Assembly (NCBI GenBank): GCA_009919005.1
Contig: RGCW01000001.1
Span: forward strand, 13,591 to 77,590
Length of the DNA: 64,000 bases
Direction of reading: 5' to 3'
DNA from: Candidatus Aquidulcis sp.
GTDB lineage: Bacteria > Chloroflexota > Limnocylindria > Limnocylindrales > Limnocylindraceae
The translations under genes were made by a program, and so were the position numbers. Below are positions 1,466 to 62,929 of this stretch, one piece after another (positions within the stretch are counted from its first letter, which is position 1; the number at the start of each line of letters is the position of its first letter). The notes beneath the pieces were generated by a model, which worked only from the letters and a program-made list of their open reading frames with translations, searched no databases and was not told the DNA's origin.

Positions 1466-3025
1466 TTAATACCCGAACGATCCCGCGAGACTTTGAATGA
1501 TCAATATTGCGGCACCCGCACCCAAGAAGAGGTTCAGCAACATGAAACGCCGCCACGCTGCGCGTGCGGCCTGATGTGTCGCCGGTCCGAGCAGAAGCGG
1601 GAGGAGCGAGATCACGCTCGCGACGGGCAGCAGAGCACCGAGGCGCTGCAGCCACTCTCCTTGCACCAGCAGCAGGAGCCCGGCTACCCCATACAACGAC
1701 GCGGCGAACCAGCCGCCACCCCGAACACCGAAGAGGGTGCCGACCGTCGCGATCCCGCTGTGGCGATCGGCATCAACATCTTGGAGCGCCCCAACAACGT
1801 GACTGGCCATATTCCAGAGGAGAAACGCGGTAAGCGGTGCGACCCACGCCGCCTGGATCGATCCGCCGAGCATCAACCCGGCGAGCGCAGGGAGCACAAA
1901 GTGTGTTGCCGAAATCACCGAGTCAAGAATCGGAATGGCTCGGGCACGCACGAACCATGGTGCGCTGTAGATGGTGGCTGAACCAATTGCGAGGAGGCAG
2001 AAGAGCGGCACGATGATCTGTTCGGTGAGCAGGAAGATCAGCGCTGAGAGCGCGCTGAAGAGAAGGGTCGTCCGCAGCGCAGGGAGATCTCGTTGCTGAA
2101 GAAGCGCACCTTCGGCGCCACCCTTCCGAGGATTGTGTCGATCCGTCTCCAGATCGTAGAGATCGTTGATTCCATAGAGGAATGCGTTATACGCCACCCC
2201 CCACCAGAGGAGCAGCGGGAGGAACCATGTACCAACCGACTCGCCAGCTCCCGCAGCGAGCGCGCCACCTGCAAACGGGAGTGCTGTATTGATCCAGGAG
2301 ACCGGTCGAGAGGAGAGGAAGATGCGCCACCAGGTTCCACCACCGCGAGATATTGACGACGTGAGCTGGATGGCAACAAGCGCGAACGCAGCCGCGTAGA
2401 AGATGTCCTCGATCGGCGCAATGCCAACCGCTACCCCTGAGCGCGGCTCAGACGCGTAGTGAAAGAGGCCAACGGCGCACATGAGGTTGTCAAAGATGAC
2501 CGTCAGCACAAGGAAGATTGCAAGGCTCCGCCGTGCGGAACGCTGGTTGGCCAGCAGCGGCGCGGTAAGTACGAGGGCCCCGACTCCCATGCCCGCTGAC
2601 ACCGCCGTGTATTCACCGCCAACCTGGGCACCAGCGATGAGGGCCATCGTAACGCCCATGGCACCCACCGCACTTATGACCACCCGAGGCGAAAGGGGCG
2701 CGGACGAAGCACGATCTTGCTTCGATGCAAGACTCATCAGCACGCAGACAAGTGACGATAGCGCGGCCAAGAGCACGATCTCTTCAACTGGCAGCCCTGT
2801 GCCGAGCGCTCCGTGTCCCGGGAGCATGAGCACGGTTGAGGTAAGCGGAGTTCCAAACCAACCGCGCCAGATTCCAATCGCATCGACCGTGAGAAAGATC
2901 ACGGTGGTGCACGCTACGGTAGGAGCGAGAACCTCACGCCGTACCGGAAGGGAGAATCGATGTACAAGTCCTCGTATGCCGAACAACGAGACGGCGATGA
3001 CCGCGAGATAGATGAGTCCGGTCAT
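1466..3025 (-). CDS. Tri-domain carotenoid enzyme: two lycopene-cyclase domains (CrtYc/Yd or CrtYe/Yf-like) fused to a UbiA-family prenyltransferase (lycopene elongase CrtEb-like)
   Basis: Polytopic membrane protein. Two N-terminal repeats of about 110 aa each carry the P-x-E-(E/D) cyclase-domain motif: GIWRGWFG...GLPVEEIVLL and FDNLMCAVGLFHY...APIEDIFYAAAF. The C-terminal roughly 285 aa has the UbiA Asp-rich motif NAFLYGINDLYDLETDRHNPRKGG and a second motif QDVDADRHSG. The track starts at GTG 3043; ATG at 3025 (MTGLIYL) overlaps the upstream stop as ATGA. Confidence 0.6.
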   Translation of the reverse strand: MTGLIYLAVIAVSLFGIRGLVHRFSLPVRREVLAPTVACTTVIFLTVDAIGIWRGWFGTPLTSTVLMLPGHGALGTGLPVEEIVLLAALSSLVCVLMSLASKQDRASSAPLSPRVVISAVGAMGVTMALIAGAQVGGEYTAVSAGMGVGALVLTAPLLANQRSARRSLAIFLVLTVIFDNLMCAVGLFHYASEPRSGVAVGIAPIEDIFYAAAFALVAIQLTSSISRGGGTWWRIFLSSRPVSWINTALPFAGGALAAGAGESVGTWFLPLLLWWGVAYNAFLYGINDLYDLETDRHNPRKGGAEGALLQQRDLPALRTTLLFSALSALIFLLTEQIIVPLFCLLAIGSATIYSAPWFVRARAIPILDSVISATHFVLPALAGLMLGGSIQAAWVAPLTAFLLWNMASHVVGALQDVDADRHSGIATVGTLFGVRGGGWFAASLYGVAGLLLLVQGEWLQRLGALLPVASVISLLPLLLGPATHQAARAAWRRFMLLNLFLGAGAAILIIQSLAGSFGY

Positions 3026-3681
3026 CGATATCGTGCACTCCACCGGAAGGCCAGAAGTGAGATCAGGGCAAGCGACGCACAGAAGAGGATCGCAGCCAGA
3101 ATCCAGAATCGCTCGGGATAGAGTTGCACGAGGCGATCGGTTGCAGGATTAAATGTCCACGTGCCATCGGCGAAGAAGAGGCGATGAAAGAAAGTGAACG
3201 TGGCGTCAAACGCCAGCGCAAACGCCGCGGCCGCCGCGAGCGCACCCCCTGCGATAAGTCGCCCTCCATCTCGGGCGGCGACGCGTAACCACGAAGCCCG
3301 ACGCCACCCCGCCAAGCACAAGAGAACCAGCCCACACACGCCCGCGATGAGCACTGTTCGCAGCAGGGCACCAACATCGACAAGATGTGCTCGCTCGCTT
3401 GCAGAGAGGAGCGGCGCGCCGTTCATCGGCACCCCAAACGCACCCGCCGCGAGTAGGTCTCCTACCAACGCGTCTGAAAGCTGCTCAGCCACCTCTGGCG
3501 CAACGCCAAGTGCCACTGGGGCACCACTGAGCCTCAACAGCAGGTGCACAGCTGGAGGCGTCAGGAATAGCGCCGTCGCGGTCGCGATCATCAGTGCGGT
3601 GGCGGCGAGCGCCAGAACCACCCGCCGCAGGAGACGGCGGAGGGGCTTCACGTGTCGGCGAGCACCTGCCCCTGCTCCCAC
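3022..3681 (-). CDS. DUF1461/TIGR01906-family integral membrane protein (Lit-like)
   Basis: 219 aa, several TM segments. C-terminal FHRLFFADGTWTFNPATDRLVQLYPERFW block is typical of this family. Stop overlaps the start of the carotenoid fusion gene. Confidence 0.4.
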   Translation of the reverse strand: MGAGAGARRHVKPLRRLLRRVVLALAATALMIATATALFLTPPAVHLLLRLSGAPVALGVAPEVAEQLSDALVGDLLAAGAFGVPMNGAPLLSASERAHLVDVGALLRTVLIAGVCGLVLLCLAGWRRASWLRVAARDGGRLIAGGALAAAAAFALAFDATFTFFHRLFFADGTWTFNPATDRLVQLYPERFWILAAILFCASLALISLLAFRWSARYR

Positions 3682-4040
3682 CAGGAACGGAGGGAGAGCG
3701 GGTCAGGAAGGGGCAGCCCGAGCGTCTGAGCGGTGGCCATTACTGAACCCCGGAACTGCTCCCACGGAGCCGCGGCCAGCACCGCTACCCCACCGAATCC
3801 CGCCTGGGCCAGAAGTTCGTGTTCAGCGGGACCAAAGAAGGCCAGGTTCAAGAGCAGGGCCTCATCGCGCCACTCTGCGACGTCGGCGGTGGTCGCATCG
3901 GTCTGATCGGCGAGCGTTTGGCGACGAGTTGGCGTCTCGGTGCGCTCAAGGAGCAGGCCGGTTGTGAAGATGCCCTGAGCCTCGAGCCGTGCGAGATGCA
4001 CGGGCTCAATCCGAGTAAGTTGCGTGATCGCCGGCATAGA
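3648..4040 (-). CDS. Hypothetical protein, DUF4332-like (helix-hairpin-helix-like)
   Basis: Track ORF is 3648..4121. The internal Met MPAITQLTRIEPVHLARLEAQGIFTTGLLLERTE looks like the likely start, giving 131 aa. Divergent from the rhodopsin gene. Confidence 0.35.
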   Translation of the reverse strand, partial: SMPAITQLTRIEPVHLARLEAQGIFTTGLLLERTETPTRRQTLADQTDATTADVAEWRDEALLLNLAFFGPAEHELLAQAGFGGVAVLAAAPWEQFRGSVMATAQTLGLPLPDPLSLRSWWEQGQVLADT

Positions 4041-4099
4041 TGCCCCCTTTCCTCCCCCGCAGCCTAGCGCCTCCTGCAGCGAGGCGGAGCGGAGCAGTT

Positions 4100-4120
4100 T
4101 GTTACATATTGTCTGTAACA
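4100..4120. promoter_or_regulatory. Perfect palindrome TGTTACA-N7-TGTAACA in the divergent promoter region upstream of the rhodopsin gene
   Basis: tGTTACAtattgtcTGTAACa read directly from the sequence; the two 7-bp arms are reverse complements. It lies in an AT-rich intergenic stretch between the DUF4332 gene and the rhodopsin gene and overlaps sequences resembling a -35 (TTGTTACA) and a -10 (TAACAAT) element. Confidence 0.3.
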
Positions 4121-4220
4121 ATAGCGAAATGTTGCGAGACCTTATCTCTCCGCTGCGATTCTGGGATACTTATCGACAGCGATCCGAGGAGGTCGCAGAA
4201 GAACATAGGGAGGTCCATTG

Positions 4221-4967
4221 ATGAGTCCACAGGACGCATATCAATTGGTCTATAACTTCATGTCCCTCGCGATTGCCGCGATGGGATCGAGCTTCTTCTT
4301 CTTCGTCTCCGCTCGCGGAGCTCTGAAGGAGGGGAACCGGATGGCGGTCACGCTGTCGGCCACAGTTGTGCTGATTGCGTTGTACCACTACGTCCGAATC
4401 TTCGACTCGTGGGTAGCCTTTGGCACCTCGGGCGGAGCTGTTCCGTTTAACGAGGCCTACCGATACGTGGACTGGCTCCTGACGGTGCCACTCCTTGTTG
4501 CTGAGTTGGTGCTCGTACTCAAGCTTGACAAGAAGCTGGAGAGCACGCTGCTCAAGCGAAACGTGCTCTACGCGTTCTTGATGATCGCAACGGGCTATGT
4601 CGGCGAGATGACGAACATCACCTCGGTTGACCTTGCTTCCCCGCGAACCATCTGGGGCGCTATCAGCTCGGTCTTCTTTGTCCTAATCCTCCGCGACCTG
4701 TTCGGCGGCATTGATGCCTCGATCAAGAAGCAGAGCAAGGACATCCAGGGGATCTTCAAGATCCTTCGCGTCGTACTGATTGCGACGTGGGGCGTCTACC
4801 CGATCGCCTATCTGCTCCCAGCCGTTGCCGGCAACCTTGGCCTCACCGCCCAGGACGGCCTCGTGCTGAAGCAGGTCGGATACACGATCGCCGACATCCT
4901 GGCCAAGCCGGGCTACGGTCTCCTCATCTGGAAGATCGCAACCCTGAAGAACGGTTCTTCGAAGTAA
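4221..4967 (+). CDS. Microbial (type I) rhodopsin, proteorhodopsin/xanthorhodopsin/actinorhodopsin-clade light-driven proton pump
   Basis: 248 aa, 7 TM. Helix [19 protein letters not shown] is almost identical to proteorhodopsin [16 protein letters not shown] and gives a D/T/E motif. Helix B His is present (LYHYV). Helix [15 protein letters not shown] supplies the retinal Schiff-base Lys. Leu occupies the PR-105 tuning position. RBS GGGAGG lies 7 nt upstream of ATG 4221. The track starts at TTG 4218. Confidence 0.92.
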
Positions 4968-5009
4968 TCCCCTTCCGACGGGAGACCGTCGGGTTCGGAT
5001 AAAGGAGAA

Positions 5010-5040
5010 GGCCCGGGGGAAACCCCCGGGCCTTCTCTAT
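5010..5040. terminator. Bidirectional rho-independent terminator between the convergent rhodopsin gene and tRNA-Pro
   Basis: GGCCCGGGGG-aaa-CCCCCGGGCC is a perfect 10-bp stem. It is followed by TTCTCTATTGT on the plus strand and by TTCTCCTTTAT on the minus strand. Confidence 0.6.
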
Positions 5041-5052
5041 TGTCAGCAGGTT

Positions 5053-5129
5053 TGGTCGGGGCGACTGGATTCGAACCAGCGACCTCTTGCACCCCATGCA
5101 AGCGCGCTACCAAGCTGCGCTACGCCCCG
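5053..5129 (-). tRNA. tRNA-Pro (anticodon GGG)
   Basis: Reverse complement folds by hand: CGGGGCG-TA-GCGC-AGCTTGGTA-GCGC-G-CTTGC-ATGGGGT-GCAAG-AGGTC-GCTGG-TTCGAAT-CCAGT-CGCCCCG-A-CCA, 77 nt with CCA encoded. Confidence 0.85.
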
Positions 5130-5155
5130 ACGAACAAGCGAGAATCGGCAGTGTA

Positions 5156-6187
5156 TCAGGACGAGTGGCGCCACTCCTGAGCCGGAGACCGACCCAATAA
5201 GCCCCGCGCGATCGCCTCAATTGACGCTCCTCCATCAAGCGCCGCGACGACCGCCGCCGTGATCGGCAACTCTAGTTTTCGCGCTGCGGCGAGATGGAGC
5301 GCACCATGTGCGGTGCCGATCCCTTCGACCGTCGCACCAATCGTGTCAACGGCCGCCTGAACTGACAGCCCACTTGCAAGGAGCGCGCCGAGTTTCGCGT
5401 TACGCGATCCTGTATTTGATGCGGTCAGCACCAGGTCTCCCACACCCGCAAGGCCGCAGGTCGTTTCGGTTCGGCCACCGCAGGCCTCCGCAAGGCGGGC
5501 CATCTCTGCCACACCCCGTGAGAGGAGCGCTGCAGCAGCATTCTCGCCATATCCGAGGGCGCGCACTCCACTGACTGCAATGGCGATTACGTTTTTCAAC
5601 GCACCGCCGATCTCCACTCCGACCACATCATCCGTGAGGTAGAGGCGGAATGTGGGGCGAACCAGCAGGTTGCGTAGCTCCTCCCCAAGGGTCGCCTCGC
5701 CGGCGAGGACGGCGGCGGCTGGTTTCCCGACCGCGATCTCGCTTGCAAGGTTCGGACCTGAGAGCACCGCAACTCGAGAAAGATCAGCGCCGGCGGATTC
5801 GAGCACTTCCGTGGGGCGTGCGCCGTTCGACGAGAGCCCCTTTGAAGCGACGAGGATTGGCGCAGTCCCGGCGGCCTCGACGATGCGTCGTGCCGTCTCT
5901 ACGGTGAGATCAGCGGACGGGATCGTGACAACAAACACATCCCCTGGCGCCAGCGCTGTTGCCGCTTCGTCGGCGCTACCGATGCGAATACTGGTCGGCA
6001 GTTCGACCCCTGGTAATCGCCGTGCGTTGCGCTGCGTACGCCGTATGGTTGTCGCATCGTTCGCCGTTCTGGCCAGCAGCTCGATGCTTGCGTCATGCGG
6101 CGATGGACTCTGATCCCTGCTCCAGAGCAGGGCGAGCGCGGTTCCCCAAGCGCCAGCACCAAGGATTCGGATCGTCTTCGTGCTCAT
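5156..6187 (-). CDS. gpsA: NAD(P)H-dependent glycerol-3-phosphate dehydrogenase
   Basis: 343 aa. N-terminal [14 protein letters not shown] Rossmann motif and overall GpsA-like sequence. Confidence 0.9.
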
Positions 6188-52397: not shown

Positions 52398-53423
52398 CTA
52401 TTTGAACGAGAGGATTGCGTCAACGAGAACGCGATCAAACGCCTCGGCATCAACCCCAACCGCGACGTCAACATCGGGAGTGCGACCTCGCGACGCGAGT
52501 CGTTCGCGATACCAGTCCGTGATGGTGCGCCCGCGTGCCAGATCGCCAAGTTCTACGTCGACGGCAGCATGTACGAGCGCAAGAAGGTTTGGCACGGCTA
52601 GGTGCGCCACCGCAACCGCATCATGGACCGCAGAGGCTGGCCAGTCATATCGCCGCTTGTGGAAAATTGCATAGAACCGCAAAAGGTCCGCGAAGATTTT
52701 TGCGGGGAGCGTACCTGCGGCGTCGAGGCGCTTCATCGCCGCCTCTCCAGTGAGCGCACGGTGCGTTGCATCGAGGCAGACCATCGTAATCGGGATTCCG
52801 GCCGCAAAGACGATCGCCGCAGCATCGGGATCAACATACGAATTGAACTCTGCCGAGGCGGTCACGTTCCCTTCGGCGATCGCGCCACCCATCCAGCAGA
52901 TGTGGGCGATCTTGGGTTTGAGCTCAGGATGGTCGCGAAGCAGGATCGCGATGTTCGTAAGCGGCCCCAGCGGTACGAGTGTCACCAGCTCACTTGATTC
53001 GCGCAGCAATGTCGCAATCAGGTCTACTGCACCAGCACCATGTTCAATGCCCGTGGGTGCCGGGAGCTCGGCGCCGTCGAGCCCCGAGTCACCGTGAACG
53101 TACGGCGCAACCCACAGCGGCCGGACAAGTGGAACCTCCGCACCTGCTGCAACTCGTACCTGGTGTTGCCCGAGGAGGGCGAGGGTCCGGCGAAGGTTCT
53201 CGTAGGTCTTGGGCAGCGACGCGTTCCCCGCAACGGCGGTAACGCCGAGCACCTTCAGTTCTGGTCGCGCAAACGCAACGGCGAGGGCCATCGCATCGTC
53301 GTGGCCAGGATCGCAGTCGATGATGATCGGTAGCGGCTTGGCAGGGGTACCGAGTGGCGCGCGGCGAGACGATGGTGGAAATGGCGTCGAAAGCGGTAGT
53401 GGATTCGGCTTCAGCTCGCTCAT
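52398..53423 (-). CDS. Nucleoside hydrolase (IU-NH family), copy 1
   Basis: 341 aa; N-terminal Ca-binding motif IIIDCDPGHDDAMA. Confidence 0.85.
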   Translation of the reverse strand: MSELKPNPLPLSTPFPPSSRRAPLGTPAKPLPIIIDCDPGHDDAMALAVAFARPELKVLGVTAVAGNASLPKTYENLRRTLALLGQHQVRVAAGAEVPLVRPLWVAPYVHGDSGLDGAELPAPTGIEHGAGAVDLIATLLRESSELVTLVPLGPLTNIAILLRDHPELKPKIAHICWMGGAIAEGNVTASAEFNSYVDPDAAAIVFAAGIPITMVCLDATHRALTGEAAMKRLDAAGTLPAKIFADLLRFYAIFHKRRYDWPASAVHDAVAVAHLAVPNLLALVHAAVDVELGDLARGRTITDWYRERLASRGRTPDVDVAVGVDAEAFDRVLVDAILSFK

Positions 53424-54439
53424 GGCAACTTGGCGAAGATAGCGACCATTTCGTCAGCGAATCGATCGCTGTCGATCGTCAGTCCTACATCACAGTTCGG
53501 CTCACGTTTGTCACGCTTAAGTCGGTAGGGATTCGCATCGCCAATCGTGCGACCGCGTGCGGGTCCGCTGGTTGCATCAACGACAACGTGGTAGCGCGAG
53601 ACGCCGACTAAATCTGGAATCGCTAGATGCAGGACGGCAACAGCATCGTGAATTGCCATCTTCTCTCCTTGGCCCCATGCGGCGGAGCGATCAAAAGAGA
53701 ACTTCAGGAGCTCGGCCGCAGCCTTCGCTGAACGACCTGGAAGCTGTGCGAATCGTTCAAGGATGGAGCGATCAAGTATGGCGTGATGGGTGACGTCTAG
53801 GCCGATCATGGTGATCGGCAGGCCGCTGCTAAACACGATCTCGGCCGCAGTTGGATCGGCGTAGATGTTGAACTCGGCCGATGCAGATGAATTCCCCTCC
53901 CCCACTGATCCGCCCATCAGGCAGATGTGCGAGATCTTGGGTGCTAGGTGCGGGAACGAGCGAATCAGAAGCGCGATATTGGTCAGCGGGCCGATCGGCG
54001 CAATTGCGACTGGCTCGGGCGATGACTCAAGGATGCGCGCCATCAGTGCCACAGCGCCCTCTGGCTCCGCTCGTCGACTGGCCTTCGGGAGTTGGGTACT
54101 TCCCATCCCGCTCTCGCCGTGGATCTCGGTGGCGCGCTCAAGTGGCCCAACGAGCGGACCAACAGCCCCCTCAGCAACCGGCACATCGTCGGCGCCATAA
54201 AGGTGCAGGAGGCGCAACGCGTTCTCTGTGCAATGGTGAACGTCTGCGTTGCCGCCGACGCTGGTGACAGCGAGAAGCTTGATCTCAGGTCGAACCACTG
54301 CGCAGGCAATCGCCAGCGCGTCATCCAGCCCTGGATCGCTGTCAATGATGAGTGGCAGCGGGTGTGCGACCGACCCTACAGGCGCCTGCCGCTGGGTCAA
54401 ACCGGCGGGCGGAAGTCGAAACAGTCCAACTGAGGCCAT
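53420..54439 (-). CDS. Nucleoside hydrolase (IU-NH family), copy 2
   Basis: 339 aa with LIIDSDPGLDDALA. Translationally coupled to copy 1. Confidence 0.85.
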   Translation of the reverse strand: MASVGLFRLPPAGLTQRQAPVGSVAHPLPLIIDSDPGLDDALAIACAVVRPEIKLLAVTSVGGNADVHHCTENALRLLHLYGADDVPVAEGAVGPLVGPLERATEIHGESGMGSTQLPKASRRAEPEGAVALMARILESSPEPVAIAPIGPLTNIALLIRSFPHLAPKISHICLMGGSVGEGNSSASAEFNIYADPTAAEIVFSSGLPITMIGLDVTHHAILDRSILERFAQLPGRSAKAAAELLKFSFDRSAAWGQGEKMAIHDAVAVLHLAIPDLVGVSRYHVVVDATSGPARGRTIGDANPYRLKRDKREPNCDVGLTIDSDRFADEMVAIFAKLP

Positions 54440-54452
54440 CCCTCCGTGCTCC

Positions 54453-55784
54453 TCAGCCTTGGTCGTACGGCTGACCGGCCGACGCCGGTCCGCGGACGCG
54501 ACCGATCAAGCCCGCGACAACGATGATAGTTACGACATACGGCACCGATCCAAGGATCTGTGGCGGGAACTTGACTCCGAGGCCCGCAAGGAGCGATGCG
54601 GCTGAAGAGGCCATGCCGAACGTCAGGGCCGCACCAAAGGCATAGATTGGATTCCACGCACCAAAGATCACCGCCGCTAGTGCGATGAACCCTTTGCCAG
54701 CGCTCGAATTCGGCGCGAATCCGCCCGTGCCGCCAAGTGAGATAAAGCTGCCAGCAAAGCCCGCAAGAAGGCCTGCAATGAGCATTGCGCGATAGCGAAG
54801 TCGCACAACATCAACTCCTACGGTGCCCGCAGCGCTTGGTAGCTCACCCGAAGAGCGCAACCGCAGGCCCCATCGTGTTTTGAAGATCATGTACGTGAAG
54901 AACAAGACGAGTCCCAACGCGATATAGAAATACGGACTCAATGCAAACAGGATTGGTCCAAACACTGGGATGTCTGACAGCACGGGAATGCTAATCGGAT
55001 CAATGTTCACCGGATTGTTGAATTCACGGTACGGCTGAAGGATGCGCTGGAAGATCACGCTCGTGATTCCGACAGCGCCAATGTTGATGACAGTTCCCGC
55101 AATGATCTGATCAACCTTGTATCGAATACCAAGTATTGCCAAAAAGAGGCTGATCAGCGCTCCAATGAGCGCTCCGCCGATCGGCCCCAAGAAGGCAATC
55201 CCCGTCACGCTCGAGACAACCGAACCAACCAAAGCACCCACCAGAAGCTTCCCCTCTACCGCGATATTGAGGAAGCCGCTGCGCTCCGCAACGATGCCGG
55301 CGATGGCACCGATTCCGACAGGAATTGCGAAGCTGAGCGTGTTCGTCAAGAAGACGGTGAGGTTCGCCGTCGTCCCATCAAGCAGCCGGGCCAGCAAGCC
55401 GAAGACCAGCAGCGGTGCGATCAGACCGATGGCCAGGCGCCACCGGAACGCTGCACCGCGCACGAACTGCAGAACTGCTGAGGCGGCGAAGGCAAGGGTA
55501 ATTCCGAGCCAGAGCGGCCCGACGCCGATCGTAAACGAAGTCTCGGTTCCTCCTACCTTGTCTACCCAGAATGAGAACTTCCCGTCCACGCCCCAGATGC
55601 CGGCTGCAACGGAGCCCGAGAGAAGCGCGAATGCACCGAACATGACGGCGCGGATGCGCGATCGGAATCGACCTTTCTGTGCCTCGACGCTCAGCTGGCC
55701 GCGTGCTCCGGTTTCAGCGTTGCGTGGTGCGTTCACGCGCTTGGGGCCCGATGTTCGAAGCTTGGAGCTTGGGCTCTTCTTCAC
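54453..55784 (-). CDS. ABC transporter permease (nucleoside/BMP-type)
   Basis: 443 aa polytopic permease in an operon with the BMP lipoprotein and tandem-ABC ATPase. Confidence 0.8.
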   Translation of the reverse strand: MKKSPSSKLRTSGPKRVNAPRNAETGARGQLSVEAQKGRFRSRIRAVMFGAFALLSGSVAAGIWGVDGKFSFWVDKVGGTETSFTIGVGPLWLGITLAFAASAVLQFVRGAAFRWRLAIGLIAPLLVFGLLARLLDGTTANLTVFLTNTLSFAIPVGIGAIAGIVAERSGFLNIAVEGKLLVGALVGSVVSSVTGIAFLGPIGGALIGALISLFLAILGIRYKVDQIIAGTVINIGAVGITSVIFQRILQPYREFNNPVNIDPISIPVLSDIPVFGPILFALSPYFYIALGLVLFFTYMIFKTRWGLRLRSSGELPSAAGTVGVDVVRLRYRAMLIAGLLAGFAGSFISLGGTGGFAPNSSAGKGFIALAAVIFGAWNPIYAFGAALTFGMASSAASLLAGLGVKFPPQILGSVPYVVTIIVVAGLIGRVRGPASAGQPYDQG

Positions 55785-56998
55785 GATCCCACCTTCGCTT
55801 TCGCCTGTCGCGGTCTCCCTCGAAGCCCGCTGAATGGATTCTTAAGGATCTGCATGGTGAGGCCCGGCGCGGCAATGAATGCAATGACCAGCGCCTGCAC
55901 AAAGAGCAACATTTCAATAGGGATAATCGTTTCAATTTGCATCAGTCGACCACCCTGCTGGAGGAAGCCAAAGACCAGCGCGGTCGCCACGACGCCAGAG
56001 GGTTTGGTGCGTCCGACCAGCGCGATCGCGATCGCCGTAAAGCCGACGCTCCCCTCAATTCCCGGCGCTAGTTGCTTCGCCATGCCCACCACAACAAGGG
56101 AGCCGCCCAGGCCAGAGATTCCACCCGAGATCAGCATGGCCGTGATAATCGAACTCGAGGCTCCGATCCCCGCATACTTCGCAGCCGCAAGGTTCAATCC
56201 TGCGGTGCGAAGCTCAAAGCCACGAGTCGAGCGGAAAAGGAACCAGCTCACCACGGCTGCGGTGATGAGCGCGATCGGGAAGGCGATGTCGAGTCGGAGC
56301 GCCTCAATTGGCAAAATGCCCGGAATATCTACGTACTTGCTCAACTCTTTTGAAACAGGCTGAAGGCGCTGCTCCTGTTGGATAAACTCCGAATTCATCA
56401 CGATGAAGAAGATGAGCTGGCTTGCGATCGAGTTCAACATGATCGTGGTGATCACCTCGCTCGCCCCAACCCTGGCCTTCAAGAAACCAGGGATGAAGGC
56501 CCACGCGGCGCCGCCGATGATGCCGAAGATCATGATCAACAGAATGGCAATCGGCACTGGCGTCACCCCGGCACCGAAGAGCAGCGCCGCAGTAGTGCCT
56601 CCGAGCGCACCGATGGCAAACTGGCCGGCGCCACCGATGTTGAAGATGCCCGTTCGGAATGCAACCGAAACGCCAAGGCCAACGAAGATGAGTGGAACTG
56701 AGGCCACAATGCTCTCAACTACTGGTCGAACGGCTCGAGTCCAAAGTTTGATGTCGCCACCAGAGGCAAACGCGTTCGCGTAGGTGGTTGGATCGCCAAA
56801 GGCCCCACGGAGGAGAGCCCCATATGCTGCAGCGACTCGACCGAGCCCAGCCCCAATGGCGCCGAGCGGATTAGAAACAAGGCCACGAATCATTTCGATG
56901 TCGGTGAGGAAGATGAACACGCCGCCTACGATGAATGCGACAAGCATCGAGAGGAGCGGGAGCTTCAAATCGTGGGCAATCCTGCGCAGCAGTGTCAC
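55781..56998 (-). CDS. ABC transporter permease (nucleoside/BMP-type)
   Basis: 405 aa polytopic permease; 4-nt overlaps with both neighbours. Confidence 0.8.
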   Translation of the reverse strand: MTLLRRIAHDLKLPLLSMLVAFIVGGVFIFLTDIEMIRGLVSNPLGAIGAGLGRVAAAYGALLRGAFGDPTTYANAFASGGDIKLWTRAVRPVVESIVASVPLIFVGLGVSVAFRTGIFNIGGAGQFAIGALGGTTAALLFGAGVTPVPIAILLIMIFGIIGGAAWAFIPGFLKARVGASEVITTIMLNSIASQLIFFIVMNSEFIQQEQRLQPVSKELSKYVDIPGILPIEALRLDIAFPIALITAAVVSWFLFRSTRGFELRTAGLNLAAAKYAGIGASSSIITAMLISGGISGLGGSLVVVGMAKQLAPGIEGSVGFTAIAIALVGRTKPSGVVATALVFGFLQQGGRLMQIETIIPIEMLLFVQALVIAFIAAPGLTMQILKNPFSGLRGRPRQAKAKVGS

Positions 56999-58503
56999 TT
57001 TTGAATTCCTCCCATCAAGAGCCCTACACGCTCACGAGTGGCGTCTTTAGCATCGAGGATTCCGACGACCTTCCCCTCATACATGACCGCTACTCGGTCA
57101 CCAAGGGCGAGCACCTCATCAAGCTCTGTGCTGACGATTAGTACGGCTGCTCCCGCATCTCGTTGTTCCACGATGCGCTTGTGAATGTATTCAATCGAGC
57201 CAACATCCAAGCCGCGAGTCGGCTGGGCGGCAATCACAAGTTTGACGTTTCGGCTGAACTCACGCGCGACGATCACCTTTTGCTGGTTGCCGCCCGACAG
57301 CGTCGCGATATCGGTATCAATCGACGGCGTTCTCACGTCAAAGTCGCGAACCGCCTGCTCTGCAGCCTGCGCGATTGCATTCCGATTCAGCACACCCTTC
57401 GAACTGTACGGTTCAAGGTGGTAGGTATTGAGGATGTAGTTTTCAGCTACGGTCATGCCCTTGACCATGCCGTCGCGATTGCGATCTTCGGGGATGTGAG
57501 CGACGCCGGCGGACGCGATAACTCGCGGGCTTGTGTTCGTCAGATCCTGGCCGCCGAGTTTGATCGTTCCCGAGTCGGATTGCCGTAAACCCGTGAGGGC
57601 TTCGACCAACTCCGTCTGGCCATTCCCTTGGACACCAGCGACGGCAAGGATCTCGCCACTGCGAACGTCGAACGAGACGTTATTCACGGTGAGCTTGCCA
57701 TCGTCATTCAGCACGCGAAGTCGATCTACTTGAAGAACTGGGGCAGCGGCTTTGGACTTGGAGCGCTTGACCGTGAGCTGCACCTCGCGCCCGACCATCA
57801 TCTCTGCCAACTTTGCGGAGGTTGCCTTCTTTGGGGTGGTCTCGCCGGCGACCGCGCCTCGTCGTAGCACAGTGATCTTGTCCGCCACGGCGATGACCTC
57901 ATTGAGTTTGTGCGTGATGAAGATGATGGAGGTCCCCCGCTTGGCGAGGCCACGAATGATCTCAAAGAGCTCGTCCGTCTCTTGGGGCGTGAGCACCGCG
58001 GAGGGCTCATCGAGAACAAGAATGTCGCTCTTGCGGTAGAGCGCCTTTAGGATCTCAACTCGTTGGCGGACGCCGACAGGGAGTGACTCAATCTTGGCAT
58101 CCGGGTCCACTTGAAGGCCGTGGCGCTCCGAGAGCTCGACCACCTGTTTGCGGGCGGTGGCTCGATCGAAACTGCCGAGGAGACCCCGAGTTGGCTCGTT
58201 GCCGAGGACGACGGACTCGGTGACGTCGAAAACGGGGACCAACATGAAGTGCTGGTGAACCATCCCGATCCCCGCCTCAATCGCCTGTGCAGGATCGCGA
58301 AAAACGCGCTCCTTCCCATCGATAAAGATCTTTCCCGAGTCTGGACGGTAGAGGCCAGAGAGAATGTTCATGAGGGTGGTTTTACCCGCCCCGTTTTCAC
58401 CAAGGAGACCGAGCACCTGGCCGCGGTCTACGGAAATGGAGATTCGATCGTTCGCAAGGACGCCTGGAAACTGCTTGGTGATCTTCTGCAGCTCAAGCCT
58501 CAT
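56995..58503 (-). CDS. ABC transporter ATP-binding protein with two tandem ABC domains
   Basis: 502 aa; Walker A GENGAGKTT plus a second ABC module, LSGGNQQKV signature. Confidence 0.9.
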   Translation of the reverse strand: MRLELQKITKQFPGVLANDRISISVDRGQVLGLLGENGAGKTTLMNILSGLYRPDSGKIFIDGKERVFRDPAQAIEAGIGMVHQHFMLVPVFDVTESVVLGNEPTRGLLGSFDRATARKQVVELSERHGLQVDPDAKIESLPVGVRQRVEILKALYRKSDILVLDEPSAVLTPQETDELFEIIRGLAKRGTSIIFITHKLNEVIAVADKITVLRRGAVAGETTPKKATSAKLAEMMVGREVQLTVKRSKSKAAAPVLQVDRLRVLNDDGKLTVNNVSFDVRSGEILAVAGVQGNGQTELVEALTGLRQSDSGTIKLGGQDLTNTSPRVIASAGVAHIPEDRNRDGMVKGMTVAENYILNTYHLEPYSSKGVLNRNAIAQAAEQAVRDFDVRTPSIDTDIATLSGGNQQKVIVAREFSRNVKLVIAAQPTRGLDVGSIEYIHKRIVEQRDAGAAVLIVSTELDEVLALGDRVAVMYEGKVVGILDAKDATRERVGLLMGGIQK

Positions 58504-58552
58504 CTACCTACGACCCTCCCCCGCTACCCGACTTGATGGTGATGTTCGAGTC

Positions 58553-58584
58553 CCTCGCCCGAGTGCCGAAGCACTCGGGCGAGG
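58553..58584. other. Intercistronic perfect hairpin (13-bp stem, 6-nt loop) between the BMP lipoprotein gene and the ABC ATPase gene
   Basis: CCTCGCCCGAGTG-ccgaag-CACTCGGGCGAGG, read directly from the sequence. Confidence 0.4.
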
Positions 58585-58607
58585 AGACTGCTCTGCACAG
58601 TGAACGA

Positions 58608-59717
58608 TTAGTTCGCCGTGAAGAAGTCCGAAACCTTCACTGAGCCGTCAATGATCTTGGCCTTCAGGGCCTCAACCTCTGCCTTGAGCTCAGCGGTCAC
58701 GAGCGAACCGAAGACCGACGTCCATGCCGACTCGGTGCGATCGAGGGTGGCGATCTGAACGCCACCATTTGCGAGCGTACCAACGTAGTTGGTGCCGCCC
58801 TTGTTCCCCTCGTAGTTGCCATTCACGGTGGCAATCACGGCCGCGCCGATGTTCTTCTGCGCGGAGGTTAGGAGCGTGCCGCAATACTCAGGAAGGCTGA
58901 TGCACTGGTCGAGGTCAACACCGACCGAGTACTTGCCAGCCGCGAGCATCGCCTCATAGGTTCCGTTGCTGGTCGTGCCCGCAACCGGGTGAACGACGTC
59001 TGCATTGGAGCCGAGGAACGACTCAGCCTGGGTCTTACCAAAGACGATGTCGCCGAACGGATTCGTCGACTCGTTGAACACGCCCGTCTTCGCAACTGGA
59101 TCCCAGCCGAGTACGGTCGTTGGAACACCCTTCTCCTTGGCGTAGTAGTTCGCGCCCGCGACCCACCCGTCCATGAACCGGGTTACACCCGGATATGGCT
59201 GACCGCCGTAGACGGCGATCGTGTGGGTGCTGCTGATGCCAGCTGCCAGGTAGGCCGCAAGCATCGACGCCTGGTCGATCTGGAAATCGATGCCGGTGAA
59301 GTTCGCAGGAACCGTGCCGTCATCGAGCGTCCACGTCGCGTCAACCCAACCGAATGCGATATCCGCATTCGCTGGATCCTGAACCACGGCCTTGAGGTCA
59401 TTGCCCTGGTTGTAGCCAACGGCAATCACCGTGTTGCAGCCCTGGTCAATCAGCGACTGAATGTTTGGCGCATAGGACTGTGGGTTCTCCGCGGTGGTGA
59501 ATGCAACCGCGAAGCCCTCCTCCTTCAACGCCATCAAGCCTTCATAGGCTGACTGGTTGAAGTTCTTGTCCGTAGGGCCGCCCGTGTCCAACGAGAGGCA
59601 TGCCTTGTACTCGGCCTTCCCGGCATCGGCTGAGGCTGACGGCGAAGCCGTCGAACCACCGCACGCTGCGGCAAGAAGAGCGAGAACGGTGAGGAGCGCG
59701 AACATTCGCGTCTTCAT
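58608..59717 (-). CDS. BMP-family ABC substrate-binding lipoprotein (nucleoside-binding, PnrA/TmpC/Med-like)
   Basis: 369 aa with a lipoprotein signal peptide and lipobox Cys (LLAAACGGS). RBS GGAGGG upstream. Confidence 0.85.
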   Translation of the reverse strand: MKTRMFALLTVLALLAAACGGSTASPSASADAGKAEYKACLSLDTGGPTDKNFNQSAYEGLMALKEEGFAVAFTTAENPQSYAPNIQSLIDQGCNTVIAVGYNQGNDLKAVVQDPANADIAFGWVDATWTLDDGTVPANFTGIDFQIDQASMLAAYLAAGISSTHTIAVYGGQPYPGVTRFMDGWVAGANYYAKEKGVPTTVLGWDPVAKTGVFNESTNPFGDIVFGKTQAESFLGSNADVVHPVAGTTSNGTYEAMLAAGKYSVGVDLDQCISLPEYCGTLLTSAQKNIGAAVIATVNGNYEGNKGGTNYVGTLANGGVQIATLDRTESAWTSVFGSLVTAELKAEVEALKAKIIDGSVKVSDFFTAN

Positions 59718-59867
59718 CTGTATGTAGCCCTCCGCTAATATCCTTTGCTCAGACGCCGACGGCGACGAGCGGGCCAGCCATTCGCTGACCGTGGGTGGAT
59801 TGTGCCTTATTGCGCGGGGATCTGCGGGCGGATTGCGAAACGGTAGCGTCCCTCGCGTGCCCTTCTG

Positions 59868-60914
59868 TTACATCCCGCGCTGCGCAAGCCAGGCATCCAG
59901 GGTGTTCCTGAGGCGGACTTTGGTTTCTTGATCGGCGAAGGCCGCGTCGTAGCCGGATCGGGCCAGCGCAATAAGGTCGGGCAATGTGAGGCCGAGACGA
60001 CGATGGACGTTGAGGTACTCCTCGGAGAGTGTCACGTCACTCACCGTGAGGTCGTCGGTGTTCAAGGTAACGGGCACGCCACGCCGGTGCAGTTCTGCGA
60101 GTGGAAAATCGCCATAGCCAGACACGATGGCTGCCTGCGTGTTGCTGGTTGGGCAGAGATCGAGCCAGACCCGTCGTGCCGCAAGATCGGCACACAGCGC
60201 GCGATCGTCAACCGCGACACCGCCATGCGCGATACGCGCAGGGCTCACGTCAAGCGCCCGACGGACCTGTGCGGCACCACCCCACTCGCCAGCGTGCAAC
60301 GTGATCGCCAGGCCGCCCGCACGAGCGATCTCAAACGCCTCGCGGAAGGTGCTTGGATCAGGAAACGCCGCCTCGCGGCCGGCCAGGTCAAATGCGACAA
60401 CCCCGACATCTTGGGCGGCGACCGCCGCCTCGGCGAGGGCTCGATTCTCATCGCGCGAATGGGAGCGAAGGGCCGTCACGATGAGACGAACCTCTATGCC
60501 AGTTGCGGTCGCACCCCGGCGGGCACCCGCGGCGACGGCACGGATCACCTGTGTCGGTGAGAGACCTTTGGCCGTATGGAGGTGTGGGCCCCATCGCATC
60601 TCCAGATACGCGACGTTGTCCCCAGCCTTGGCTCGAACCAGCGTTTCCGCGGCCATGTCGAGCGCCTCTGCATCTTGCAGCAAGGCAATCGGCAGATCGA
60701 AAGCGCGGAGTAGATCGGCCTGATCCAGACATCGCTCTGGTGCCACCAGGGCAGCGCGCATCCCCGCCCAGTCACGCGGCGCATCTACTCGACGAGTTGC
60801 AGCAAGCTCCAACGCCAAGGCGGCGTCCAGCGAGCCATCGAGATGGAGGTGGAGTTCGGGCTTTGGTAGCTCATGGAGGAGGCGGCGAGCATCCTCAGCG
60901 CGTTGATACTGCAT
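59868..60914 (-). CDS. add: Adenosine deaminase
   Basis: LPKPELHLHLDGSLD N-terminal metal-binding motif. Start taken at the internal Met MQYQRAEDARRLL; the track ORF extends to 61199. Confidence 0.85.
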   Translation of the reverse strand: MQYQRAEDARRLLHELPKPELHLHLDGSLDAALALELAATRRVDAPRDWAGMRAALVAPERCLDQADLLRAFDLPIALLQDAEALDMAAETLVRAKAGDNVAYLEMRWGPHLHTAKGLSPTQVIRAVAAGARRGATATGIEVRLIVTALRSHSRDENRALAEAAVAAQDVGVVAFDLAGREAAFPDPSTFREAFEIARAGGLAITLHAGEWGGAAQVRRALDVSPARIAHGGVAVDDRALCADLAARRVWLDLCPTSNTQAAIVSGYGDFPLAELHRRGVPVTLNTDDLTVSDVTLSEEYLNVHRRLGLTLPDLIALARSGYDAAFADQETKVRLRNTLDAWLAQRGM

Positions 60915-60990
60915 CCGCCCTCCCCTCGCATCGTTCCGCTGGCCGCGCACGGGCGTGCGCACTCCGACGAGAGAGAGGATACTCCCCACC

Positions 60991-61926
60991 ATGAACACCT
61001 CCGTACCAGTTGCGACCGATTCTCGGAGCCTCGCATCTTGGCTCCGCGACGCGACCCCCGTAGACCGTGTCGGGATCGAAGAGCGGGTTGCGACGCTGAA
61101 GACCCGGTCAATCAAAAAGTCGTCCAAGGTCTGGGCACTTCGACTTGCCCTGAGCATGTGCGACCTCACTACCCTGGAGGGAAAAGACACTCCAGGCAAA
61201 ATTCGTCAGCTTGCCGCCAAGGCGATGCGCCCGCTTCCAGGCGACCCCTCCATGCCTTCAGTCGCAGCTCTCTGCTGCTATCCGGATCTTGTCGGCGTGG
61301 CCAAGGAGGCCCTCAAGGGGAGTGGCGTCAAAGTGGCCTCCGTTGCGACGGCCTTCCCGAGTGGGCGTTCATGGCTTGATCTCAAGATCGCAGAGACGAC
61401 CCATGCCGTGGCGGCGGGGGCCGACGAAATTGACATGGTCATTGATCGCGGTGCTTTCTTAGCCGGTGATTTCGCAAAGGTATGGGACGAGATCGTCGCT
61501 GTGAAAGAGGCATGCGGCCCGGCGCACCTCAAGGTCATTCTTGAAACGGGCGAACTTGGTACCTACGACGATGTTCGTCGGGCATCGGCGCTCTCTATCG
61601 CGGCGGGCGCTGATTTCATCAAAACCTCCACAGGCAAGGTCACTCCCGCCGCGACCCTTCCGGTCACGCTCGTCATGTTGGAAACCATTCGCGAACACTG
61701 GAATCGCACGGGAAAGATCGTGGGAATGAAGCCCGCAGGGGGTATCCGCACGGCGAAGGAGGCGATTCAGTACCTCGTAGTCCTGCATGAGACACTTGGG
61801 CCAGACTGGCTCACCCCCGACCGCTTCCGCTTCGGTGCATCGAGCCTGGTGAATGATCTCCTGATGCAGTTAGAGAAAGAGGCTACCGGCGCATACGCTG
61901 ACCCTGACGATTTCACCCTCGACTAG
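60991..61926 (+). CDS. deoC: Deoxyribose-phosphate aldolase (long form)
   Basis: FIKTSTGK Schiff-base Lys motif and EIDMVIDRGAF. RBS GAGAGAGGA precedes ATG 60991; the track starts at 60955. Confidence 0.85.
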   Translation: MNTSVPVATDSRSLASWLRDATPVDRVGIEERVATLKTRSIKKSSKVWALRLALSMCDLTTLEGKDTPGKIRQLAAKAMRPLPGDPSMPSVAALCCYPDLVGVAKEALKGSGVKVASVATAFPSGRSWLDLKIAETTHAVAAGADEIDMVIDRGAFLAGDFAKVWDEIVAVKEACGPAHLKVILETGELGTYDDVRRASALSIAAGADFIKTSTGKVTPAATLPVTLVMLETIREHWNRTGKIVGMKPAGGIRTAKEAIQYLVVLHETLGPDWLTPDRFRFGASSLVNDLLMQLEKEATGAYADPDDFTLD

Positions 61927-62927: not shown

Positions 62928-62929
62928 GC

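Follow-up and report, generated by a model that had tools for sequence, protein, structure and literature searches.

A chromosomal xanthorhodopsin-type rhodopsin gene of freshwater Limnocylindraceae, its predicted proton-pump residues and its neighbourhood

Xanthorhodopsin (XR)-like rhodopsins of the SL56/Limnocylindraceae lineage were described in 2018. They were presented as XR-like, green-tuned and possibly equipped with an antenna, 10 of the 12 residues that contact salinixanthin being conserved (Mehrshad et al. 2018, PMC6169038). Rhodopsin has been reported as an acquired proton-pump trait of Limnocylindraceae, and phototrophy by rhodopsin is believed to be among a small number of traits that the family gained on entering fresh water (PMC13212565). 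Because Limnocylindraceae are abundant in lake plankton and phototrophy would be among these few gains, a rhodopsin locus of the family matters ecologically. A Gly at the position of XR residue 156 opens a fenestration in the protein (bioRxiv 10.1101/2022.08.24.505090, PMC12779958).

We analysed one such locus in a stretch of 64,000 nucleotides (64 kb), hereafter the window. Its rhodopsin is identical in protein sequence to NBO51836.1, deposited at NCBI as 'xanthorhodopsin [Candidatus Aquidulcis sp.]', and this exact sequence is found in 36 blocks of public assemblies. At 37 other genome loci, Limnocylindraceae (SL56) XR-like rhodopsins that are 78-98% identical occupy the same chromosomal position. 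Protein and clade are already known, the protein being deposited and named and the clade having been discussed since 2018, and they do not constitute a new kind of system. We conclude with high confidence that positions 4221-4967 encode a chromosomal, vertically maintained xanthorhodopsin-type rhodopsin of freshwater planktonic Limnocylindraceae, Candidatus Aquidulcis sp. At the level of its sequence, the protein supports the inferences published in PMC6169038: XR-like character, green tuning and a possible antenna.

The rhodopsin coding sequence (4221..4967, forward strand) encodes 248 aa followed by a TAA stop. Its open reading frame, Pfam match, PDB matches and residue map assign it to the xanthorhodopsin-like DTE proton-pump type. 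The frame can be opened at 4218 or 4221 and runs to 4967(+); ATG 4221 is the conserved start, and TTG 4218, considered as an alternative, is missing from Limnocylindrus-type relatives. An earlier reading of the letters alone (the sequence-only reading) had proposed a profile search, and this matched PF01036 (Bac_rhodopsin, Pfam) with 134.9 bits against a cut-off of 24.6 (E 3.8e-39); the match spans residues 14-241 of the protein and positions 7-222 of the 224 in the profile. The NCBIfam search returned no matching model for the protein. An AlphaFold2 model, built from a shallow alignment of 23 sequences, displayed seven helices with moderate confidence (pLDDT 67.7) and was used for topology and fold, not for pocket geometry. 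Its top Foldseek matches (TM-score 0.80-0.84) were Antarctic Pseudanabaenaceae psXR, XR, TR, Gloeobacter rhodopsin (GR), Kin4B8 and Rhodoluna lacicola actinorhodopsin (RlActR). Comparison with the five closest loci revealed purifying selection on the gene (dN 0.013-0.034 versus dS 0.28-0.39).

We mapped functional residues on a MAFFT alignment to reference rhodopsins that had been checked against the PDB: the BR reference is identical to 1o0a, and the green proteorhodopsin (GPR) reference is 8cqc bar one substitution in the signal-peptide region. The predicted counter-ion D84 aligns with BR D85, GPR D97, XR D96 and GR D121, T88 with BR T89, GPR T101, XR T100 and GR T125, and the predicted proton donor E95 with GPR E108, BR D96, XR E107 and GR E132. 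The D/T/E triad of the sequence-only reading thus falls at the correct aligned positions. So do its Leu at the PR-105 position (L92, GPR L105), its helix B His (H56, GPR H75 and XR H62) and its Schiff-base Lys (K229, BR K216, GPR K231 and XR K240). R81 corresponds to BR R82 and D225 to BR D212. None of the catalytic residues varied among the 38 full-length Limnocylindraceae sequences that we compared, the window's own included. Before the Schiff-base Lys the protein has Ala, like the XRs, where GPR has Asn. The conserved helix A start YxLVYN, aligned with XR residue 12, is preceded by only about seven residues, too few for a signal peptide, whose absence that reading had also claimed. It had further proposed inspecting the Gly/Trp antenna position in helix E, which proved to be a glycine: G146 aligns with XR G156, BR W138, GR G178, psXR G172 and Kin4B8 G153, and is conserved in 38/38 genome-derived clade sequences. 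One metagenomic clade variant, P0112, has Phe at this position. All the motifs that had been quoted are found in the translation, and in the alignment the agreement of the residues is far beyond chance. The clade also has features of its own: V/I/L127 where other rhodopsins have Pro, R158-D159 where other XR-type sequences have Tyr (Phe, Trp or Arg in a few) and then mostly Val, and a shortened B-C loop.

The mechanism that we propose is taken from the characterised homologues XR, GR, TR, ActR, Kin4B8 and psXR. All-trans retinal would be bound to K229 as a protonated Schiff base. On absorption of green light (L92), the retinal would isomerise and the Schiff-base proton would pass to the counter-ion D84, which would form a hydrogen bond with H56 and have R81, T88 and D225 beside it. 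E95 would then reprotonate the Schiff base from the cytoplasmic side, and each photocycle would export a net one proton, adding to the proton-motive force of a photoheterotroph. Because G146 would keep open the fenestration next to the ring of the retinal, this site may accommodate a carotenoid antenna; we judged the fenestration from the alignment and not from the model because the confidence of the latter is only moderate. For pumping and its direction, as for lambda-max and the binding of a carotenoid, we infer from homologues, none of which exceeds 51% identity outside the clade.

Pfam scans of the window bore out that the gene is chromosomal and lies among housekeeping genes, as had been claimed. 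A tRNA-Pro (GGG; 5053..5129, reverse strand; ARAGORN, and Rfam tRNA at 62.4 bits) adjoins the rhodopsin in convergent orientation. The more precise placement between mogA/nrdR and tRNA-Pro/gpsA had skipped three genes between mogA and the rhodopsin. One encodes a DUF4332 protein, the next a membrane protein resembling Lit/TIGR01906 and the third a fusion of lycopene cyclase and UbiA prenyltransferase, so that the context is not purely housekeeping. The DUF4332 protein (129 aa; 3648..4037, reverse strand; PF14229, E 3e-11) is the first gene of a divergent operon. Its start, MPAITQL, is conserved and agrees with public gene calls, and the gene is syntenic in every locus that retains the flank, in both Limnocylindraceae groups. 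The Lit/TIGR01906-like integral membrane protein (209 aa; 3022..3651, reverse strand; PF07314, E 2.6e-18) overlaps each neighbour by 4 bp and scored 66.9 bits with TIGR01906, under the cut-off of 74.8. We considered it as a Blh analogue and rejected this, since it matched Lit/TIGR01906 only and had no Blh/Brp similarity.

The third gene (1466..3025, reverse strand) encodes a 519-aa fusion of two putative lycopene-cyclase-type membrane domains with a CrtEb/LyeJ-like UbiA prenyltransferase, predicted to be of the C50-carotenoid elongase/cyclase type. Pfam detected PF01040 (UbiA, E 6e-18) and PF18916 (Lycopene_cyc, E 7e-4), and NCBIfam PRK13105 scored 215.4 bits, just under its cut-off of 217. 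P0179, a fusion that lies within crtE-crtB-crtI-(125-aa ORF)-fusion clusters, matches residues 157-510 at 39% identity (E 2e-62). The N-terminal 124 aa, the putative first cyclase repeat, gave a weak BLASTP match (E 0.10) to the 125-aa ORF of the P0179 cluster, a small cyclase subunit, and the two have an LP(V/L)EE motif in common; Pfam at E <= 10 found no match in the first 140 aa. Across the 64 kb window (about 55 ORFs), Pfam detected no blh, crtB, crtI or crtE.

The 183-bp intergenic region between the divergent operon and the rhodopsin contains a perfect palindrome, TTGTTACA-N7-TGTAACAA (4099..4121, unstranded), which is unique within the 64 kb window (none expected in shuffles) and a candidate operator for a dimeric regulator. 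Aquidulcis-type loci keep TTGTTACA-N6-TGTAACAG, and Limnocylindrus-type loci keep the left half-site only. Further downstream, a conserved column block comprises a -10-like GATACT after TGn (4165..4170, forward strand), a putative rhodopsin promoter element; relatives have GATACT or CATAAT at this position. A generic sigma-70 scan of 3600-5300 found no promoter and there was no convincing -35; TTGTTACA, considered in that role, lies about 59 nt upstream of GATACT, which is too far. A leader hairpin, GCGAUC-N6-GGUCGC (4179..4196, forward strand), appeared in both the MFE and centroid folds. In 28 distinct sequences, 94.4% of cells were paired versus at most 61% in slid controls, three pairs displayed compensatory changes (15 cells), and the observed score was reached in 0/500 shuffles. 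Because the hairpin lies directly downstream of the -10-like GATACT, it is probably at or near the mRNA 5' end. A Shine-Dalgarno-like GGGAGG(T) (4207..4213, forward strand), read from the sequence, precedes ATG 4221 by 7-8 nt and is kept as GGGAGG or GGAGG in Limnocylindraceae loci.

On the 3' side of the stop are two tandem G+C-rich hairpins (4974..5038, forward strand; 4974-4993 and 5004-5038). The pair folds with an MFE of -55.6 kcal/mol (z = -5.85), and 0/200 shuffles fold equally well. Both hairpins are conserved across loci, and in an alignment read by eye the first stem still pairs despite substitutions in loci L032, L034 and L016. A terminator scan matched the second hairpin on the minus strand. 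Placed between the rhodopsin and the tRNA-Pro that converges on it, the two may act as a bidirectional terminator or stabilise the 3' end of the mRNA. Apart from the tRNA, an Rfam scan of 3900-5300 at E <= 1 gave only noise below threshold on these hairpins, and no riboswitch or known leader.

We wondered whether the rhodopsin and the DUF4332/Lit-like/fusion operon form a co-regulated module with a shared operator, in which the fusion would serve a C45/C50 antenna or supply a retinal precursor. This is a speculative proposal to which we give a small chance. If it holds, the neighbouring operon would make a cyclic C45/C50 carotenoid that the fenestrated pump takes as its antenna; or else the genome, streamlined and without a recognisable blh, would rely on the fused cyclase for the precursor that brings the ionone ring of retinal. 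The literature that we consulted holds no description of a C50 antenna on a bacterial xanthorhodopsin.

Where does the protein belong, and in which host? The sequence-only reading had called it a proton-pump rhodopsin of the proteorhodopsin/xanthorhodopsin clade, and Pfam, PDB matches, alignment, tree and Foldseek all place it on the xanthorhodopsin-like side. Helix C is nearly identical to that of green proteorhodopsin EBAC31A08 (8cqc/2l6x), differing at only 4 of 16 positions, and equivalents of D97, T101, L105, E108, H75 and K231 are all present. These likenesses favour the proteorhodopsin family proper, yet we regard membership in it as extremely improbable. Identity is 29% to GPR (26% to BR) versus 45-48% to XR-type proteins (psXR, S. 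ruber XR, GR, Kin4B8), and the top PDB matches all belong to XR-type chains, from 1e-53 to 2e-45 (psXR 1e-53, XR 8e-52, GR 3e-51), versus ~1e-21 for GPR and 1e-15 for BR. GPR has a signal peptide and an Asn before the Lys, and the window protein has no signal peptide and an Ala. At the fenestration site GPR is reported to have a bulky non-Gly residue, Phe (bioRxiv 10.1101/2022.08.24.505090 / PMC12779958); our MAFFT alignment put GPR Pro150 there. The sequence-only reading had also suggested a phylogeny, and in a neighbour-joining (NJ) distance tree, which carries no support values, the clade groups with XR-like sequences, GPR branches outside and ActR falls in a different subclade. The nearest relative outside the clade is at most 51% identical; by sequence, the Limnocylindraceae rhodopsins form an isolated XR subfamily. 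The same reading had taken the host for a high-GC actinobacterium, and some observations lean that way: the window has 61% GC, the next-nearest species-representative rhodopsins (44-49% identity) include many from Actinomycetota (Ilumatobacteraceae, Mycobacteriales, Cellulomonas), and the freshwater XR-like DTE pump RlActR (9hfk), which also has the fenestration Gly, is among the top structural matches (TM-score ~0.81). Synteny refutes this host assignment. In the first 15 kb of the window, the part compared, 15 genes are collinear with Candidatus Limnocylindrus/Aquidulcis MAGs, a group that sits in Chloroflexota, at 63-98% amino-acid identity in Aquidulcis-type MAGs; all 15 match in the same order, and actinobacterial loci share none of the flanking genes. 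The deposited NBO51836.1 likewise places the host in Chloroflexota (Candidatus Aquidulcis, Limnocylindraceae). The protein is, moreover, no closer to actinorhodopsin (RlActR, from an actinobacterial host, 43%) than to the cyanobacterial and Salinibacter XRs (45-48%), with 48% for GR and psXR. That the gene is an actinorhodopsin, or some other rhodopsin carried on the chromosome of a high-GC actinobacterium, accordingly has a negligible probability, and the xanthorhodopsin-type gene of a Chloroflexota host is the reading that we retain.

Codon usage bears on two further alternatives. With an Nc of 39.5, the second lowest of 48 genes and next to an ABC substrate-binding protein, the rhodopsin is among only two strong codon-bias outliers; its GC3 is 0.79 versus about 0.65, and its dS of 0.28-0.39 is 5-10-fold lower than the 1.4-3 of the flanks. 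Because strong codon bias and low synonymous divergence come with secondary structure in the 5' leader and two strong hairpins on the 3' side, the gene is suggested to be very highly expressed. Such bias fits an abundant energy-transducing protein rather than the low-copy sensor that one would have if the rhodopsin were a photosensor; inward proton transport, or transport of another ion, would be further departures from outward proton pumping. Our literature search found no expression or measurement of any protein of the clade, and the isolation of the subfamily (at most 51% identity elsewhere) and its clade-specific substitutions leave some room for these functions. We nevertheless consider them very unlikely, since D/T/E, His, Arg, Asp and Lys are all conserved without exception, the PDB search puts the pumps for Na+ (NDQ) and Cl- (NTQ) farther away (~1e-22 to 1e-27) and no transducer-like gene is adjacent. 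The low dS could itself have another origin if Limnocylindraceae had recently exchanged a rhodopsin-tRNA-Pro cassette by homologous recombination; the high similarity of 4221-5130 between lineages would then reflect this exchange and not codon-usage selection. Nucleotide identity per 100-bp window is 82-97% from 4221 to ~5120 versus 52-90% (mostly 55-80%) in the flanks, a difference matched by that in dS, and the non-coding 3' spacer is conserved too. Loci L032 and L034 are equal in flank identity, their rhodopsins being 79% and 87% identical, and gene tree and flank tree disagree. On the other hand, strong codon bias by itself lowers dS, and dS is low (0.67) even versus another genus (L029), where the flanks are saturated. 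The 3' hairpins are kept even in the distant genus, the first pairing despite its substitutions, which points to functional constraint, and the tRNA is conserved for its own reasons. We lean towards codon bias over recombination as the cause of the low dS; exchange is unlikely, though a contender to be taken seriously.

Taken together, the analysis corrects the host assignment and confirms the protein residue by residue. It adds a nearby carotenoid fusion gene of predicted C50 type, a putative operator, hairpins in the leader and at the candidate terminator, and indications of very high expression, which could guide a first biochemical characterisation of this isolated XR subfamily. The passages of PMC6169038 that we consulted make no mention of the regulatory elements, the codon-bias signal or the nature of the carotenoid fusion gene.

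How does the protein compare with characterised XRs? S. ruber xanthorhodopsin (3ddl) is 45% identical, the R/D/T/L/E/H/D/K set and Gly156 align, and both proteins are without a signal peptide. M208, M211 and A212 reportedly line the salinixanthin ring pocket of XR; their counterparts in the window protein are L198, A201 and V202. In contrast to S. ruber, no ketocarotenoid pathway is evident within the 64 kb window. Kin4B8 (7ytb/8i2z), a freshwater XR that binds lutein and zeaxanthin, is likewise 45% identical and has the DTE motif, its G153 corresponding to G146. The polar floor of its pocket, S208 and Y209, which favours 3-hydroxy rings, is replaced by A201 and V202 (T201 and I202 in Limnocylindrus-type relatives), and its A205 by L198. 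The closest characterised proteins are GR (6nwd) and psXR (9wfa), at 48% identity and E 1e-51 to 1e-53. Compared with these two, the window protein comes from another host phylum, lacks an N-terminal extension, has a B-C loop about 5 residues shorter and a D-E loop 4-5 residues longer, and carries V127 where they keep the conserved Pro of GYPGE and R158-D159 where they have Tyr-Val/Ile. Like both, it has the DTE motif, the His, the Gly of the fenestration and a floor there that is mostly hydrophobic; its L198 is matched by psXR L224.

The sequence-only reading had assigned the gene at 4221-4967(+) to the microbial rhodopsins. A profile search bore this out: the 248-aa product matched Pfam Bac_rhodopsin over nearly its full length (134.9 bits, E 3.8e-39). 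The ORF is listed at 4218..4967(+), and alignment with related loci identified ATG 4221 as the conserved start. GGGAGG (4207-4212) lies ahead of this ATG, and the alternative TTG at 4218 is not kept in more distant relatives. The top solved chains in a PDB sequence search were all xanthorhodopsin-type proton pumps: an Antarctic Pseudanabaenaceae xanthorhodopsin (psXR; 9wfa, E 1e-53), Salinibacter ruber xanthorhodopsin (XR; 3ddl, E 8e-52), Gloeobacter rhodopsin (GR; 6nwd, E 3e-51), Rhodoluna actinorhodopsin (RlActR; 9hfk, identified from the Foldseek match list, E 2e-49), the freshwater xanthorhodopsin Kin4B8 (7ytb, E 3e-47) and Thermus rhodopsin (TR; 5azd, E 2e-44). Weaker matches were sodium and chloride pumps and green proteorhodopsin (GPR) at 1e-21 to 1e-27 and bacteriorhodopsin (BR) at ~1e-15. 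An AlphaFold2 model of moderate confidence (pLDDT 67.7) showed seven helices, and Foldseek matched it to psXR, XR, TR, GR, Kin4B8 and RlActR at TM 0.80-0.84.

We aligned the protein by MAFFT with BR (100% identical to 1o0a), GPR (8cqc apart from one substitution in the signal-peptide region) and segments of XR, GR, psXR, RlActR and Kin4B8 taken from HMMER alignments, whose numbering matches the published one (XR H62/D96/E107/G156/K240; GR D121/E132/G178/K257; Kin4B8 G153). R81, D84, T88, L92 and E95 fell on BR 82/85/89/93/96 and GPR 94/97/101/105/108, H56 on GPR H75 and XR H62, and D225 and K229 on BR D212 and K216; W85, W190 and Y193 are retinal-pocket residues. The DTE motif (D84/T88/E95), the Leu at the "green" position, the helix-B His and the Schiff-base Lys had thus all been placed correctly. 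Homology supports the predicted identity of the protein as a DTE proton pump of the XR/PR superclade, green-tuned and without a signal peptide.

We then asked where the protein stands among rhodopsins. A neighbor-joining distance tree, without support values, grouped the Limnocylindraceae rhodopsins as one long-branched monophyletic clade among the XR-like proteins, with GPR outside the XR-like group and Rhodoluna actinorhodopsin in another subclade. The clade is isolated: among 1.84 billion representatives of clusters built at 50% identity, one full-length cluster belonged to it (82% identity) and no other full-length match exceeded 51%, and among genome-derived rhodopsins identity to the query jumps from 78% to 49% across an empty gap. 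H56, R81, D84, T88, L92, E95, G146, D225 and K229 are invariant in 38/38 full-length clade sequences. Every Limnocylindraceae sequence compared also carried three distinctive features: V/I/L at residue 127, versus the Pro of GYPGE in other XR-type proteins; R158-D159 close to where helix E ends on the cytoplasmic side, a pair usually of Tyr-Val/Ile type in the other XR-type sequences (Tyr, in a few Phe, Trp or Arg, followed mostly by Val); and a B-C loop (residues 65-76) shortened by about 5 residues relative to XR, GR and Kin4B8. The D-E loop is slightly longer in the clade.

The gene had also been read as part of an actinobacterial chromosome. That interpretation was wrong. The closest named homologues of the rhodopsin are from Chloroflexota, and a scan of species-representative genomes recovered 37 loci at 78-98% amino acid identity, from MAGs labelled Candidatus Limnocylindrus, Candidatus Aquidulcis, Chloroflexi/Chloroflexota or "bacterium", plus one "Thermoflexus hugenholtzii JAD2"; the next matches (Ilumatobacteraceae and other Actinomycetota, Deinococcales, Proteobacteria) were at or below 49%. 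Positions 1-15 kb are collinear with Limnocylindrus/Aquidulcis MAGs at ~73% nucleotide identity, and 15/15 genes tested share order and orientation (nrdR, mogA, cyclase-UbiA fusion, Lit-like, DUF4332, rhodopsin, gpsA, der, ispH, plsC, cmk, rluB, scpA, xerC, recN), at 63-98% identity in Aquidulcis-type and 47-85% in Limnocylindrus-type MAGs. None of the tested flanking genes was found at actinobacterial rhodopsin loci. The identical protein is public as NBO51836.1, "xanthorhodopsin [Candidatus Aquidulcis sp.]" (contigs up to 82 kb; 36 blocks of assemblies), and NCBI taxonomy places the sister genus Candidatus Limnocylindrus in Chloroflexota, Limnocylindria, Limnocylindraceae.

Two loci deserve mention. 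The one titled 'Thermoflexus hugenholtzii JAD2 isolate MH-08apr19-222' (L009, CAMAXG010000001.1) is collinear with the Candidatus Aquidulcis MAGs and resembles the window to about the same degree as they do; its organism label looks wrong. A 'Candidatus Limnocylindrales bacterium' MAG (L043:4563-5306) encodes a different XR-like rhodopsin (46% identity) with Phe at the fenestration position, and its locus has no flanking gene in common with the window. It thus appears that Limnocylindrales acquired rhodopsins more than once.

Against the five closest loci, the rhodopsin showed dN of 0.013-0.034 and dS of 0.28-0.39, the latter 5-10 times lower than in the flanking genes (~1.4-3). Nucleotide identity per 100-bp window was 82-97% from 4221 to ~5120 and 52-90%, mostly 55-80%, outside. 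Among 48 genes, the only strong codon-bias outliers were the rhodopsin (Nc 39.5, GC3 0.79) and a Bmp/PnrA-type ABC substrate-binding protein (58608-59717; Nc 37.2), the other 46 having Nc of 46.5-56; in an oligotrophic plankter, the most abundant proteins would be expected to look like this. Codon bias probably accounts for a large part of the dS deficit, which speaks against homologous exchange at the rhodopsin locus among Limnocylindraceae. However, two related loci (L032:10001-10723 and L034:10001-10765) have flanks as similar to the window as other loci do (der 89%) and more divergent rhodopsins (79% and 87%). This suggests allele replacement or a diversifying history at the gene in these two genomes, and for that reason we keep some exchange in consideration, while judging it improbable.

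The intergenic region between the rhodopsin and the divergent DUF4332 gene spans 183 bp. It contains a perfect palindrome, TTGTTACA-N7-TGTAACAA (4099-4121), which occurs once in the 64-kb window. Aquidulcis-type loci keep this palindrome with N6 spacing, and Limnocylindrus-type loci keep a half-site. Downstream of a -10-like GATACT (4165-4170), the rhodopsin leader forms a 6-bp hairpin (4179-4196) that is 94% paired over 28 distinct Limnocylindraceae sequences, with compensatory changes at three pairs, and outscores 500/500 shuffles and all slid controls. This hairpin probably lies at the mRNA 5' end and could act as a stabiliser. Two tandem G+C-rich hairpins (4974-4993 and 5004-5038; MFE -55.6 kcal/mol, z -5.85), both conserved, separate the rhodopsin stop codon from the convergent tRNA-Pro: by eye, substitutions in L032, L034 and a third related locus, L016, leave the pairing of the first intact, and the second (AAGGCCCGGGGG-AAA-CCCCCGGGCCTT) is nearly invariant in both genera. 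An Rfam scan recognised the tRNA and nothing else.

In the window as in public gene calls, three divergent genes are joined by 4-bp overlaps as an operon: DUF4332 (3648-4037(-)), a gene for a Lit/TIGR01906-like membrane protein (3022-3651(-)) and one for a 519-aa cyclase-UbiA fusion (1466-3025(-)). The fusion combines two lycopene-cyclase-type membrane domains, the first by weak match, with a CrtEb-like UbiA prenyltransferase (NCBIfam PRK13105, 215.4 bits, under the cut-off of 217), and its full-length form is essentially limited to Limnocylindraceae. Residues 157-510 match a 394-aa protein (39% identity, E 2e-62) found in crtE-crtB-crtI-(125-aa ORF)-fusion clusters, and residues 1-124 weakly match that 125-aa ORF (E 0.10), LP(V/L)EE motif included. 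A 742-aa relative has an extra GT2 glycosyltransferase and adjoins crtI and crtB. We take this architecture to be that of C50-carotenoid elongase/cyclase systems (CrtEb with CrtYe/Yf; Dietzia LbtA/LbtBC), a putative assignment for 1466-3025.

No blh and, beyond the fusion, no crt gene (crtB, crtI or crtE) was found within the 64-kb window, the remainder of which encodes housekeeping and nucleoside-scavenging functions. The nucleoside-scavenging genes cluster at 52398-61199: a tandem pair of inosine-uridine nucleoside hydrolase paralogues and an adenosine deaminase, together with two permeases, an ABC ATPase and the Bmp/PnrA substrate-binding protein. Two neighbouring aldehyde-dehydrogenase ORFs lie at 61989-63955(-), one running past the window end; the other, of 312 aa, matches just profile positions 20-213 of 461 and may be truncated or divergent.

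Rhodopsins of this group have been described before. Mehrshad et al. 2018 (PMC6169038) reported rhodopsins in SL56 (= Limnocylindrus) MAGs as nearest to xanthorhodopsins and green-tuned, with up to 10/12 salinixanthin-contact residues conserved, and a 2026 Nature Communications paper (PMC13212565) treats proton-pumping rhodopsins, present in 65 of the Limnocylindraceae genomes, as a habitat-linked gain, absent in soil relatives. The sequence-only reading thus correctly found again a gene that was already known and annotated, with slight added interest from the adjacent C50-type carotenoid fusion and the isolation of the Limnocylindraceae XR subfamily. Our literature search found no expression or spectroscopy report for any protein of the clade.

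Carotenoid preference is not readable from the query sequence. At the helix-E position that distinguishes Gly from Trp, the protein has Gly: Gly146 aligned with XR Gly156 and BR W138. Gly at this position opens a fenestration for the carotenoid antenna, and the G153F substitution in Kin4B8 abolished carotenoid binding (bioRxiv 10.1101/2022.08.24.505090; PMC12779958). The pocket floor of Kin4B8 is polar (S208, Y209), whereas the query has A201 and V202, and Kin4B8 A205 is replaced by L198, as in psXR (L224). Judged by these residues, the carotenoid pocket looks closer to the GR/psXR/XR type.
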